The notes under the pieces: generated by a model
Databases searched by the model: none
The model's input: the letters and a program-made list of their open reading frames with translations, nothing else
Told to the model about the DNA's origin: nothing
Assembly (NCBI GenBank): GCA_951406725.2
Contig: OX597814.1
Coordinates: 31,310,001-31,374,000 of the forward strand
Origin: Octopus vulgaris
Lineage: Eukaryota
Reading direction: 5' to 3'
Length of the DNA: 64,000 nt
Position numbers and translations under genes: made by a program
Shown: positions 8,714-59,268 of the stretch, piece by piece
How the letters are laid out: every line of letters begins with the position of its first letter
How positions within the stretch are numbered: the stretch's first letter is position 1

Positions 8714-9210
8714 ATCGTGACGTATTTTTGCCATTTCAATATGGCTAACCCCTAAGGGTGGATGCTACTGTAGTTTTTAGCCCCAGGAGGACACACTCCT
8801 CCAGCTGGCCATAGACACACTTTCTGTGTCCTGTCAGTATTTGCAAAGGGAAGTCATCCTTCCCGTCTTCAACTTATGATACACACGGACTCGAGTTTCG
8901 AGGTATTGACCTCTCGTCAGCGTGTGACAATCATAGTTGTCGCCGAGAATTAGATTTCCTTCACAAATACTTATACTTTTTCCAGCGCCCACTGTCGCTG
9001 ATATTGAAAAAGTGAAATCAAACAATGATAAATATCAAAGTGAGTTATATACAGTAGCGGTAACACATCGTGACGTATTTTTGCCATTTCAATATGGCTA
9101 ACCCCTAAGGGTGGATGCTACTGTAGTTTTTAGCCCCAGGAGGACACACTCCTCCAGCTGGCCATAGACACACTTTCTGTGTCCTGTCAGTATTTGCAAA
9201 GGGAAGTCAT
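8714..9210 (-). mobile_element. Hammerhead-containing non-coding element (retrozyme- or mini-Penelope-like): 353-bp unit plus 144-bp perfect terminal direct repeat
   Basis: 8714-8857 is identical to 9067-9210; the HHR lies in the unique part; (TA)n on both sides; no ORF of note. Confidence 0.85.
8870..8939 (-). ncRNA. Type I hammerhead ribozyme, canonical core, extended stem I
   Basis: Minus strand CAAC-TATGAT-TGT-CACACG / CTGACGA / GAGGT-CAAT-ACCTC / GAA / ACTCGAGT / C / CGTGTG-T-ATCATA-A-GTTG; predicted GUC cleavage between 8888 and 8887. Confidence 0.92.
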
Positions 9211-9334
9211 TCCATATATATATAAACATGTTTTTATATATACACATATATATGTGTATGTATGTATATGTATATAAAAGTGTGTAAATGTGTGTGTGAT
9301 TATCTATGTGTGCACGTGGCTTTGTGTATTTTCT

Positions 9335-9536
9335 TGTCCCACCGCCACCGCTTGACAACCAGTGTTGGTGTGATTACCTCCCTGTAACTTAGCCGGTCGG
9401 CAACAGAGACCAATGGAATAAGTACCAGGCTTAAACAAATAAATCCTGGGCCGGTTTGTTTGACTAAAACTATTTACAGTGGGACCCCAGCATGGATGCA
9501 GTCAACTGACTGAAGCGCATAAAAGAATAAAAGAAC
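9335..9536 (+). mobile_element. SINE family A 3' module (diverged)
   Basis: CGCTTGACAACC...CCCCAGCATGGATGCAGTCAACTGACTGAAG...AAAAGAATAAAAGAA. Confidence 0.8.
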
Positions 9537-9761
9537 ATCCGTTAAGAATGATACGTCTCGTCATTTTAGGGAGGGTTTTATTTGAAACATTTTTGCGGAG
9601 TTTGAATGTGCAGTGGAAATGCTGGTCTAACCGTGACGCGGAGAATGACATCGGCTTAGGTGGATTTTCATGTTGTCAAATATCTCGAAGATCCATGAAG
9701 TTCGCAATAGTAGAATACGAGATGGTAACACAATTGGTAAAGAGTAAAGAATAAACAGGAA

Positions 9762-10060
9762 AAACCCCATTCGGTTAGAATGACTATGGGATTGCACCTA
9801 GAAACAAACTCTCCGAGATATAAGTCCGGGCAAGATTGTTTATTGAAGACTAGCAATGGCCTATGCATAACAACCTGCTCTCACCACGTCACCGATGTTA
9901 TCCAAGGCAAAGGCAAAGGCTGATACAGCTTGGCACCAGTGATGCTGCAACTTATTTCTACGAATGAGTGAACTGGAGCAACAAGAAATAAAATGTCTTG
10001 CTCAAGAACACAAAACAGCCCGGTCCGGGAATTGAACTTACAACCTCATGATTGTTAACC
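9762..10060 (-). mobile_element. SINE family C, diverged copy
   Basis: Colinear with 63085-63414 (GTCCGGGCAAG, TTATCCAAGG, GAGTGAACTGGAGCAAC, TGTCTTGCTC). Confidence 0.85.
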
Positions 10061-10424
10061 TAATTAACTAAAACAATATGTTGGTTTCAGGGCTTCATAC
10101 TGTCAGTGATAAGTTTATATCGGCCATTATTTTGCGGACTAATGGTTGTGTTCAAGTGATCCGGGTCCCGTTTGTTCTAGGCTTCCAGGTTCATGAGTTC
10201 TTGGACCAAATGATGACACAAGAAGCTAACCATAATCAGAAATTAATTGAGAAAAAGTTATTGTTAAAATGTCGGTTGAAGTGGCGAATACTCTTATTCT
10301 TTCGGTGCTGTGTTATATACGGTGCAGCAAAGCGTCAGGCAAACCATCCGGCAAATCGTCCGACAAACCGTCCGGCAAAGCTTTACTGCACTCAAACTAT
10401 AACTGTTACATTCTGGTGAAACTA

Positions 10425-11646
10425 TCAGGTCACCCCCAAAGTTCTGTCCGATTTTACCTTTTTTAAAATTGAATGAAATTTAATAGTATTTTAGAATGTC
10501 TAATGGAATTAAAAATTATTTTTATACATTTGTGTACAGAATAACAGAATTAGAATTTCTCTGATTAAAACCCTTCTAACATGGAAGTATCCAAATCCAA
10601 AGAGCATTTAAGGAGCATAATGCTTTATGAGTACAAAAAAGGAAACTCTGCAGCCGAAGAGACTCGAACACATAGACTCAGTTTATGGGAAAGAATGCTT
10701 GAAAGAATGAAATTGCAGAAGATGGTTTGCAAAATTCAGAAATGGAGATATCAGCCTTCAAGATGAAGATCGAACAGGACGTCCAGTTGAGATTGATGGT
10801 AAGCTACTTGAGGCATTACTTTAAAAAAATCCTGCATTATCAATAAAGCTTAGTTAAAACCGTATAACTGTTCATCATCATCTTCAACAACTTAGAAATG
10901 TTCCTAAACTTGGAAAATGGGTGCCTCATGAATTGTTCGAAAGCAACCGCAAATCCAGAGTTGACATCTGCTCTTCTCTCCCTTCCCGCGAACTCATTTC
11001 ACCCTTTTTGGATATGACTTGTGATAGGTCGAACGTCGAACACAGTTGCTTGGTAAAATGGAAAAAGCTCAACCACAACCGAGAAGGGAACTTCATGAAA
11101 AAGAGGTTCTTCGCTTTATCTGGTGGGATTGCAAAGGAATAATTCGCTTTGAATTGTTACCACCTAATGCAACAATCAATGCTCAAGTCTACTGTCAGCA
11201 ATTAGAGCGTTTGAACCAAGTTTTGAAAAAAAGACCCGCTTTAATGAATCGAAAAGGAATGATGTTTCATGAAGACAATGCGCGACTCCCACACTGCTAA
11301 GACCGCAGCACAGAAGATCGAAGAGCTTGATTGGGAAAATATTCATCATCCACCTTATTCTCCCGACCTTGCTCCTTCAGACTCTCATTTGTTTCGTAGT
11401 TTACAGAATCATTTGGGGGACATAACTTTCGCAAGCCAGGAGGAGTTCGAAACTGACATTTCAGATTTCTTCGTTGTGAAACCAAAAGAGTTTTACATTG
11501 ATGGGATTAAAAAGCTTGTAAATAGATGAAAGGAAGTCATAGATAATCAGGGAAAGCACATTGATGATTAAATTTCAATTAAATATAACATTTGAACACT
11601 TGTTTTCTTTATTCAAAATTGGGACAGAACTTATGGGATGACCTGA
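10425..11646 (+). mobile_element. Full-length decayed mariner (DD34D) transposon, 1222 bp
   Basis: Imperfect ~31-bp TIRs TCAGGTCAyCCC..AAGTTCTGTCC, TA at both ends, transposase remnants inside. Confidence 0.95.
10581..11529 (+). pseudogene. mariner transposase pseudogene (frameshifts, deletion around the first catalytic Asp)
   Basis: EHLRSIMLYEYKKG, WVPHEL, WWDCKGII, FHEDNAR and HPPYSPDLAPSD motifs across several frames. Confidence 0.93.
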
Positions 11647-57000: not shown

Positions 57001-57806
57001 CTGCCTGACTAATGATATCAACATTACGAACCCTACTACTTCTCTGTCACTACTTTTCTACCTGTTGGTTTTTATTTTCCACAGAAGTTTTTCTTTCTTT
57101 TCTTGAGTTACTTCCTTGCTTTTGCTGTTTTGTATTATTCATTTTTTGTTGTTGTTGTTTTTGTAGTCAATGTACTGGTTTTTCAGCAGTTGCTATTACT
57201 CTTGTTGTTGTTGTTGCTGTAGCTGTGGGTGACAATAAATTCATAATTTTTTTCTACCCAATAATACCGGAATTTATTTTCTCACGTCTCCCTAGTCTCA
57301 GTCGGTATATTTCTCTTTCACGCATAAAAGAAAAAAATCAGCGTATAGTATGCACAAACTACCCCACCCCAAAACACACTAACACATACACAACAAATGC
57401 ACTTCTACAAACGCACGACCACTTATTCACACAAACTTACAATTTTACACGCGTTCCTATTAAAGGTTAATATAGGGAAAAAAGGGCACATGAAATGAAA
57501 ATAACATATTTACGTATACATATATAAACATGTAGAAATTCATAAATTACGTTATGTATCATCACAAAATAAGATACACGACTATATATATACATATATA
57601 TAGTGTAATAAATAAAATATATGCATACATACAAACATATATGTACGTACCTACATCTACATGTATATATACATGCATATATAAATATATATACGTGAGT
57701 ACAGGACACCACAACTAGACGTAGAACTCAACGAGAAACGAAAACGGAAAAACCATTTTTTTACAACAGAAAAACAGAGTACAGGACATACTACACAAGG
57801 AAAAAC

Positions 57807-57872
57807 TTGGCCTGCTCGCTTAGCCAGCGGGGTGGCGTCATTCGAAGGCGTCATTCGGTCACGTGATCACGT
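57807..57872 (+). mobile_element. Internally deleted SINE D short-tail module
   Basis: TTGGCCTGCTCGCTTAGCCAGCGGGGTGGCGTCATT...CGGTCACGTGATCACG. Confidence 0.75.
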
Positions 57873-58252
57873 AATATATATATATATATATATATTTATA
57901 TATGTATATATAATATATATATATATATCCACATGCATCTATCTTGGCTTGCCTGTTACGTTGAGCTCTGTGTGTGTATGTGTGTGTGTGTGAAACCTTT
58001 CATACTTCATTTTAATTTACCTATATTGCCACTTGTCAACCCTACTTTACAACGTACCTAACCGTCCATCTTTTCCTCCATCCATCCGTATGTCTATCTG
58101 TCTGTGTGTCTGACAGTGCGTCTGTCTCTGTCTCCTCTGTCTATATATGTCTGTGTTTCTATATATGTATTTATATATATATAAATACATATATATATAT
58201 ATAAATACATATATATATATATATATATATATATATATATATATATGTATAT

Positions 58253-58554
58253 GTGACCGTGACCGACCAGGCTATCAGATGTTGCTACACATTGCTGGTC
58301 ACAATGCGCTTCGCATTGTTTTAGCCTTCAAATGAGGCCACCCAGCTGGCTAAGCGGGCAGGCCAACAGAAGAAAGAGTGAGAGAAAGTTGTGACGAAAG
58401 AGTACAGCAGGGATCGCCACCACTCCCTGCCGGAGCCTCGTGGAGCTTTAGGTGTTTTCGGTCAATAAACACTCACAACGCTCGGTCTGGTAATCGAAAC
58501 CGCGATCCTACCATCTCGAGTCCGCTGCCCTAACCACTGAGCCATTGTGCCTCC
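58253..58554 (-). mobile_element. SINE family D, full-length, short-tail variant, in (TA)n
   Basis: tRNA-like head TGGCTCAGTGG...GTTTCGATTACC; body shared with 16471-16661; different 3' end. Confidence 0.9.
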
Positions 58555-58715
58555 ATATATGTATATGTATATATATATATATATATATATATATATATAT
58601 GTATATATATATATGTATATATATATATGTATATATATATGTATATATATATATATATATATATATATATATATATATAAATATATATATATATGTATGT
58701 ATATACATATACATA

Positions 58716-59268
58716 TACAAAAGAAAAGCGACACAATTGTCTAATCATATGGTCTTTAAGAGATAAAGGTGTCGATTATAACATACAATGGAAGATTTTG
58801 GCCAGATGTAAGCCCTATACTAACGGCAGCGGAAGGTGCGGTCTATGCGACATGGAGAGATGGCTTATCTGGAAAAGCAGCTTAGACCCTACTACATGTC
58901 TAAATACAAGGACAGAGCTTTTCGGATCATGCCCACATGTGACTAAGTTTCTGTTACGTTTTTGGTCCCCTAAAGAAAACAGATAGAACATGCTTTCTAT
59001 GTTATGTCCCAAGAAGAATTTATATATTTTTATATATTTTTTATATATTTTTTATGTATTTTTATATAATTTTTATGACGAAAAATGCGAGCGATGTATA
59101 AGTACGCAGGCAAGCAGAGTTATAACAGAGTAATTTCCCTTTATTTAACGGTATTTTTTCATAACGTTTTCAAATAGCCAGAAAACCGAAGAGATGGTGT
59201 TGTGGATTTCCACTTCGGCATCTGAAACTCAGAGTTTTATCTTGACTACCGAGTAATGTAACATATTG
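58716..59268 (+). mobile_element. 3' end of a Penelope-like element: GIY-YIG C-terminal ORF remnant plus 3' UTR/pLTR with an HHR-like motif
   Basis: [26 protein letters not shown]...YTNGSGRCGLCDMER...LNTRTELFGSCPH (one frameshift); HHR-like motif at 59175-59248; (TA)n on both sides. Confidence 0.88.

Follow-up and report, generated by a model that had tools for sequence, protein, structure and literature searches.

Hammerhead ribozymes in the pseudo-long terminal repeats (pLTRs) of Penelope-like elements (PLEs), targeting of TA repeats, tails and inversions have all been published, including for an octopus element of the Hydra clade (PMC4209133; PMC8557442). The hammerhead is nearly universal in Penelope elements, cuts poorly and was dispensable for insertion in vitro. 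In published Hydra hammerheads, stem II is flanked by U..U and a stem III of 3-4 bp carries a loop of 1-3 nt (Craig File S2, PMC8557442), and metazoan retrozymes, which carry hammerheads as well, have been proposed to be mobilised by PLEs (PMC7229834; bioRxiv 10.64898/2026.07.22.740005). Here we describe a 64,000-nt stretch of the Octopus vulgaris genome (contig OX597814.1, positions 31,310,001 to 31,374,000; hereafter the window), in which an earlier note had picked out nine hammerhead motifs of about six families.

With a probability of roughly 0.88, these motifs are type I hammerhead folds that lie in the 3' ends of four PLE families, two of Neptune type and two of the Hydra clade, and in those of two non-coding tandem repeats, all of them likely inserted into (TA)n tracts by Penelope proteins that combine a reverse transcriptase (RT) with a GIY-YIG endonuclease. 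Elements of this kind are not new: they were described by Cervera and De la Pena (2014) and by Craig et al. (2021), who report the Hydra-1_Obim hammerhead at (TA)n. The additions made here are a density control, two core variants (U6 and C9) and a rule for paired termini.

Hammerhead motifs and families in the window

The coordinates and strands of all nine motifs were borne out, and homology searches within the octopus genome grouped them into six families, where the earlier note had about six: A (8870-8939, minus strand), B (29059 and 53964), C (30242, minus strand), D (36213), E (54588) and F (54969 on the minus strand, 55094 and 59175). The nine motifs represent eight insertions, those at 54969 and 55094 being the two arms of one, and a tenth motif, partial and inverted, was found at 36172-36213. 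A first look at the genome gave 1588, 804, 617, 978, 1098 and 1046 candidates for families A to F, of which 40 per family were scored. Exact-pattern searches of the genome returned 15,487 matches in the case of B and 822 in that of D, and a 28-nt piece of A matched 500 times; the reversed controls gave none. As judged from sequence, all six families are high-copy and have the type I hammerhead layout. The insertions and their motifs are listed below, with clade names as putative assignments and core positions in hammerhead numbering.

8616-8715: (TA)n tract adjoining the 3' end of the family A insertion
8716-9210, minus strand: family A insertion of retrozyme type, in which a non-coding tandem unit of 353 nt is present 1.4 times; its 3' end is the short terminus
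8870-8939, minus strand: family A hammerhead, canonical in its core, with a GUC triplet, a stem II of 5 bp and a palindromic stem III; cleavage predicted between 8888 and 8887
29055-29183, plus strand: family B stub, Neptune-type pLTR, 5'-truncated within stem I, part of which is lost; hammerhead at 29059-29094 with U6
30123-30596, minus strand: main arm of family C, Neptune-type 3' untranslated region (UTR)/pLTR, 92.8% identical to the full element at locus L184; hammerhead at 30242-30285 with C9
30616-30646, plus strand: short inverted second arm of family C, ending in tail sequence
36160-36349, plus strand: family D two-armed stub, Hydra-clade pLTR, with the inverted arm at about 36160-36213 and TA on both sides
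36213-36265, plus strand: family D hammerhead with canonical core, U10.1-U11.1 and 3-bp stem II
53960-54098, plus strand: family B stub between two TA tracts; hammerhead at 53964-54001 with U6
54139-54831, plus strand: family E two-armed insertion; the inverted tail arm is short and reaches to about 54230, and the non-coding unit, about 527 nt long, is present 1.1 times
54588-54681, plus strand: family E hammerhead with canonical core, U10.1-U11.1 and one stem I mismatch
54865-55190, both strands: family F two-armed insertion, Hydra-clade pLTR, with a tailed left arm (minus) and a right arm (plus), flanked by a possible target duplication (54840-54864 / 55184-55208)
54969-55029, minus strand: family F left-arm hammerhead with G8A and a stem III mismatch
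55094-55154, plus strand: family F right-arm hammerhead with canonical core and a stem III mismatch
58719-59076, plus strand: C-terminal end of a decayed Hydra-clade GIY-YIG open reading frame (ORF) and start of its 3' UTR, 77.7% identical in DNA to locus L328
59122-59282, plus strand: family F pLTR end of the Hydra element at 58719; hammerhead at 59175-59248 with U4C, shared with one subfamily, followed by (TA)n at 59283-59329

The stems of a hammerhead, three helices round the core with stem I open, are present in all six families, and most copies of A, D, E and F have the canonical core (CUGANGA ... GAAA ... UH). Within the window the CUGANGA core is found in just four of the nine copies (8870, 36213, 54588 and 55094) and the other five have core changes; the layout is clearer in the family majority sequences than in the window copies. 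In family A, 54 of 71 copies are identical across the aligned span. The mostly palindromic stem III that had been noted holds, fully or nearly, for A, B, E and F but not for C, which has a 2-nt AA loop, or D, which has a loop of 8 nt. Stem II of D is just 3 bp long and takes an alternative register in the energy fold. U4C cores recur at the level of subfamilies, in eight or nine of 17 members of a sister family of B, in five of nine members of a further cluster (cluster 7) and in 4/55 F copies.

Core variants of families B and C

Families B and C have a hammerhead-like layout but a core that departs from CUGANGA, with U6 in B and C9 in C. Position 6 was U in 96 of the first 100 listed of the 15,487 B matches (counted by hand; the pattern leaves positions 6 and 7 free), among which position 7 was U in 45, A in 25, C in 19 and G in 11. 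U6 was also present in 19 of 20 B copies from outside the window that had been found via the downstream flank alone. N7 and H17 are the most variable columns within the B motif, in an alignment pre-filtered on that motif and with parts of the flank equally conserved. The sister family of B has A6. In the C cluster, C9 is found in 44 of 45 members; the family is young and its older relative has A9. Our literature searches, which covered supplements only in part, found no report of an A6U or A9C hammerhead and no survey of cephalopods. The 44 motifs in the part of Fig. S3 of Cervera and De la Pena (2014; PMC4209133) considered here all have A6 and A9, which the descriptor used there required. 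A6C is known as a slow natural hammerhead variant.

There is a little less than an even chance that the B and C motif no longer works as a ribozyme and persists, in elements that are still spreading, either as an RNA fold that would bind protein or serve in priming or as a hitch-hiker. Natural and mutant hammerheads with changes at A6 had low activity (Perreault, 2011), hammerhead mutants of the green anole element still inserted in vitro, with no reads ending at the cut site (PMC11167929), and eight of nine Xenopus retrozyme dimers stayed uncut (Li, 2026; bioRxiv 10.64898/2026.07.22.740005); C being young, C9 may be a recent loss of function. What speaks against a relic is that B varies most at just those positions, N7 and H17, that a hammerhead leaves free, while U6 is held.

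It seems rather unlikely, on the other hand, that U6 (at least four subfamilies, more than 15,000 copies) and C9 mark working variant ribozymes that either dimerisation or the protein of the element itself would rescue and that Rfam and standard descriptors would not see. If they do, this genome, in which hammerheads sit at some 200,000 ends and the arm rule (see below) is close to strict, would be a natural experiment on the purpose of the Penelope hammerhead and on how both DNA strands are primed. The U6 and C9 families, standing beside A6 and A9 sisters, provide ready-made natural pairs for a comparison of cleavage.

Coding elements upstream of four families

A single ORF with a PLE-type RT and, C-terminally, a GIY-YIG domain was found upstream of the motif in B, C, D and F but not in A or E. 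For C it was reached in five of 30 loci, one of which (L184) is a full element with an inverted 5' pLTR, RT, CX4CXXC finger, GIY-YIG and 3' hammerhead; its Pfam matches to RVT_1 and GIY-YIG, at E=4e-4, fall under the curated cut-offs. In B, the endonuclease C-terminus was met in 8/30 loci through a pyrimidine-rich UTR, and locus L346 has both RT and endonuclease. A Hydra-type ORF lies upstream of F in four of 30 loci and in the window as well, where the fragment at 58729-59040 (53% identity, E=4e-34, tblastn) ends 135 nt short of the motif at 59175. For D, a Hydra ORF is collinear upstream in loci L342 and L343, whose shared 3' UTR is 88% identical over 1.27 kb. The pLTR hammerhead, the inverted 5'-truncated copy and the optional one-ended tail of PLEs are seen in L184, in L346 and in two-armed insertions.

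The proteins linked to D and F have the CxCX5C linker, lack CCHH and carry CxxC and CxH round the conserved E and N; together with the (TA)n target these are the features of Hydra. Those of B and C have a CX2-5CxxC finger before GIY-YIG, CCHH inside it and a C-terminal endonuclease, as in Neptune. By these motifs, B and C are assigned to Neptune-type and D and F to Hydra-clade PLE 3' ends (pLTRs); B and C may also be compatible with Nematis, whose finger is likewise reduced.

The earlier note had taken all the motifs for parts of short elements invisible to ORF-based annotation, a reading under which the six families would be independent non-autonomous ribozyme elements without a coding parent. 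For A and E this holds so far (their longest stop-free frames have 66 and 87 codons), and most copies of B, D and F are indeed short stubs. As an account of all six it is very improbable, since B, C, D and F run collinearly into Penelope-type ORFs and their 5' ends vary, as truncation predicts; four of the six families are the pLTRs of RT/GIY-YIG elements, and their short copies are the truncated ends of long ORF-bearing elements.

Two apparent tandem arrangements were rejected: F copies spaced by 1.37-1.43 kb at locus L187 reflect a local duplication of a stub with its flanking DNA, and the B copies at L272 are two separate stubs. A further family of Penelope-type ORFs was seen beside D copies (L344:4791-6335 and L338:4327-5037), with a 515-aa piece that includes RT and GIY-YIG.

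Two non-coding families of retrozyme type

Families A and E consist of tandem non-coding units with one type I hammerhead each and G+C below 50%, as do retrozymes that lack long terminal repeats (non-LTR retrozymes). The A unit (353 nt, 43% G+C) occurs in head-to-tail arrays of copies that are 99-100% identical, with a spacing of 352-354 nt in 23 of 25 gaps and no frame of more than 66 codons. The E unit is older (527-530 nt, 32% G+C; longest stop-free frame 87 codons), and one tandem pair of it was found. Contigs of four runs presumed to be RNA cover family A and have neither joints nor piled-up ends, though contigs of this kind carry no information on ends or strand. A 383-nt contig (the unit plus 30 nt) in run X5 closes the cycle, a result that tandem DNA would give identically.

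Head-to-tail arrays of up to five units would also be expected of satellite-like repeats spread via duplication of DNA and not via reverse transcription. We consider this origin of A and E highly improbable: the copies are dispersed over many chromosomes with unrelated flanks, at 99-100% identity in A, and have fixed 3' ends at TA, variable 5' ends (scattered in A, in a biased sample) and a discordant two-armed structure. Because D, E, F and A share the usual style of Hydra hammerheads, in which U..U flanks stem II and stem III measures 3-4 bp, Hydra-type proteins may be the likeliest helpers of A and E.

Two-armed insertions and a proposed mechanism

In each of the families examined, 3' ends occur at two termini, a short and a tailed one. 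Two-armed insertions combined one short with one tailed arm in 104 of 112 cases (A 12/13, C 11/11, E 9/11, F 23/24 and D 49/53, some of the D rows being duplicates of one event), and of the 11 one-armed A copies ten have their end at the short site. Craig et al. (2021; PMC8557442) noted that the tail is often at one end only, and in the green anole element RT starts at two internal sites and both nicked strands are extended (Frangieh, 2024; PMC11167929). With that element as the match, we infer from the pairing of short and tailed arms that the two strands are primed at different RNA sites. The counts of two-armed insertions lend genomic support to both-strand priming at two RNA sites and, as the same signature is seen on retrozyme-type units, bear on the proposal that Penelope proteins move retrozymes.

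In the mechanism that we propose, a Penelope-type protein would cut both strands of a TA tract, and each 3'-OH would prime reverse transcription at one of two internal RNA sites, 45-110 nt apart, downstream of the hammerhead. Copying would stop early and, where both strands had been extended, the two complementary DNAs (cDNAs) would be joined head to head. As the start of copying would lie 20-250 nt behind the predicted cut site, even the shortest stubs would retain the ribozyme; because copying would start just downstream of it, hammerheads would accumulate beside TA tracts in proportion to the density of the latter. A and E would ride on Penelope machinery, most likely of Hydra type, as multimeric or circular RNA. 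The ribozymes would cut slowly, as dimers or with the help of protein, in full-length or tandem transcripts, and most isolated stubs, including most of those in the window, are probably inactive.

Family D has a hot spot for fold-back: of 23 insertions taken in order of position, 17 (counted by hand) have the inversion joint at a 6-bp palindrome no more than about 12 nt upstream of the hammerhead core (window 36160-36226 and loci L389-L418). Either two cDNAs have been joined repeatedly at this site or a short hairpin subfamily moves by itself. Another two-armed stub, truncated right behind its ribozyme, lies at 28733-28976 and belongs to a seventh family (hammerhead cluster 11, with U3-A8); the tail of its left arm is 81% like that of family C, and its right arm ends short, at (TA)n.

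TA tracts and motif density

The observation that the host elements abut TA repeats was upheld: 3' ends are fixed at (TA)n, above background. In sets of 30 loci per family, which are mostly best matches to the window copy and include the window's own and overlapping loci, the first TA run began at one base in 24/30 B copies, within 139-164 nt in all 30 of D, within 248 nt in 28 of F, within 259 nt in 26 of C and within 280 nt in 25 of A, E being looser (15/30 within 355 nt). TA lay within 260 nt of 6/45 and 10/46 copies of two anchors resembling short interspersed nuclear elements (SINEs) and of 205/1080 random points. Unbiased position-ordered pattern samples gave TA for 22/30 B copies and, within 140 nt, for 28/30 D copies, and the families found in random DNA and absent from the window had a TA run at most 300 nt downstream in nine of 13 cases, against a background of 22% (P=4e-4).

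For density, motifs were counted with a library of 34 members (about 20 recurring clusters minus five doubtful ones, numbers 6, 16, 18, 19 and 23, plus 16 high-scoring singletons), which was built in part from the regions scanned and covers just the families already seen. Stem III is palindromic in nearly all members, and several have the known U3-A8 core. The random set, 60 stretches of 10 kb placed at round coordinates of 30 contigs, gave 50 motifs in 600 kb, and the 120-kb neighbourhood of the window gave eight (4.3 per 64 kb). The ten motifs of the window, which had been called unusually dense, compare with 5.3 per 64 kb in random DNA (P=0.046) but with 11.1 expected once scaled for TA tracts (P=0.67), which are 2.1 times denser here than in random DNA. 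The window itself is ordinary, and its density fits the TA-rich DNA of this genome.

The suggestion of a very abundant community of microsatellite-inserting, hammerhead-tagged retroelements, by contrast, agrees with the size of the library and its yield in random DNA. Genome-wide we estimate 170,000-310,000 copies, many of them decayed (95% interval 62-110 per Mb); a descriptor at score 10 (about 19 per 600 kb above shuffle) leads to roughly 90,000. An estimated copy number of the order of 10^5 in 2.8 Gb is high beside published counts, which are about 9,000 for Xenopus tropicalis, about 5,000 for mussel and as many as 120,000 for axolotl.

Between 53960 and 55190, elements of families B, E and F stand in a row with TA between each, which suggests repeated insertion into one tract.

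Descriptor scans, folds and points against

Structure descriptors exceeded shuffled controls as long as they were strict, and most of the signal was gone with two core mismatches. In the window, a strict descriptor had one match against none in 12 block shuffles, the strict core with an extra flanking base three against 0.08, and a relaxed form six against 0.67; allowing two core mismatches gave four against 1.83, which is little signal. A second descriptor found five in the window against 1.4 in shuffles at score 8 and two against none at score 12. The motifs at 29059 and 59175 matched none of the descriptors used and were identified via family homology only. No Rfam hammerhead was among the 150 matches listed of 514 in the window, where matches of microsatellites to microRNA models dominate, and none reached the gathering score in the six loci scanned.

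Several points weigh against the Penelope reading of the six families. Stem covariation within families is weak: among 17 B-type rows, 87% of the cells are paired, one of ten pairs is changed on both sides, and the covariation scores were reached by 16-500 of 500 shuffles. The pair counts leave out the F-type alignment, two rows of which (L160 and L314) had wrong coordinates. Minimum-energy folds give stem II in most copies and the full three-way fold clearly in none, with z below -2.9 in two of the nine motifs. The make-up of the 30-locus sets counts here as well. The link of D to an ORF, the weakest of the four, crosses 2.7 kb of low-complexity UTR and was seen at two loci, and clades were assigned from motifs and not from a tree. 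For A and E, no autonomous partner of similar sequence came to light, and their Hydra assignment has hammerhead style as its one ground.

That the motifs are no more than chance matches in repeat-rich, AT-rich DNA is the least credible reading of all, for although loose descriptors match shuffles too (9-19 per 600 kb at score 8, as with the 1.8 per window at two core mismatches) and Rfam gives no match, strict ones exceed them (in 600 kb of random DNA, score 10 gave 21 against 1-3) and every motif is placed where a pLTR would be expected to have it and is retained across subfamilies.

Host transcripts and other features of the window

The idea that intronic copies might cut pre-mRNAs finds little encouragement. 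Pfam showed no host exon among 149 non-repeat frames of the window and its 120-kb neighbourhood (79 of 90 listed and 70 of 183, respectively), although short exons would be missed; the only matches above chance were to RT and transposase. Cutting of pre-mRNA by the window copies appears unlikely, because published PLE hammerheads cut poorly and as dimers, each window insertion offers one same-strand motif where a dimer partner is predicted to be needed, five motifs have changed cores and, in three copies (D and the F pair), read-through RNA would have the ribozyme covered by pairing with the inverted arm.

The window is 37% G+C and packed with microsatellites. Its long frames are RT fragments of the long interspersed nuclear element (LINE) type, at 974-3571 and 59392-61175. 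The former belongs to a minus-strand element whose apurinic endonuclease and RT frames are divided by a stop (Pfam PF14529, PF00078); the latter lies in RTE-like LINE remains on the plus strand (59331-61700) that start with a 90-nt palindrome round a TA tract (59331-59420). A SINE-like repeat forms head-to-tail arrays at 51639-52813 and 55972-56994, with periods near 187-230 nt. A repeat at 53771-53915 (plus strand) has GAAA some 30 nt before a CUGAUGA core, in permuted order and with an unclear stem I; it had one match in 600 kb of random DNA.

Comparison with known systems

To judge from their sequences, the window families are further Neptune-type and Hydra PLEs and non-LTR retrozymes, of mostly known kind. 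With Hydra-clade elements, such as Hydra-1_Obim of Octopus bimaculoides (PMC8557442), D and F share the C-terminal GIY-YIG, the CxCX5C linker and insertion at (TA)n, as well as a hammerhead near the 3' end in which U..U flanks stem II, as is common in the clade, and stem III measures 3-4 bp, a tail at one end and an inverted 5'-truncated copy. The D and F motifs are unlike the Hydra-1_Obim hammerhead in sequence, and D differs further in its low-complexity 3' UTR of about 2.7 kb and its 8-nt loop III. U10.1-U11.1 of D and E is no novelty, being typical of Hydra hammerheads and known elsewhere too.

Neptune-type elements (PMC4209133; PMC8557442) have in common with B and C the order of RT, CX4CXXC zinc finger and GIY-YIG, and a minimal type I hammerhead in which an extra base stands between positions 9 and 10.1 and stem III is palindromic, in copies that are mostly truncated and single. 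Unlike the 44 motifs of Fig. S3 considered above, whose descriptor required A6 and A9, B has U6 and C has C9.

Non-LTR retrozymes (PMC7229834; bioRxiv 10.64898/2026.07.22.740005) resemble A and E in their non-coding tandem units of a few hundred bases with G+C below 50% and one hammerhead per unit. The E unit is above the 150-450 bp of the 2020 paper (PMC7229834) and within the 51-972 bp of the 2026 preprint. In contrast to published retrozymes, A and E, known here from DNA, have a Penelope-like integration signature (TA target, two termini, inverted arm).

The Poseidon element PAc of the green anole (PMC11167929) shares two internal RT start sites that define the tail, an AT-rich target, nicking and extension of both DNA strands and a protein-assisted hammerhead, of which all but the target are inferred here from genomic copies. 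PAc belongs to a different clade and was studied in an in vitro system, and the passages of that paper considered here do not state that the start sites of opposite arms differ, a rule that the octopus insertions, to judge from their ends, follow in 104 of 112 cases.

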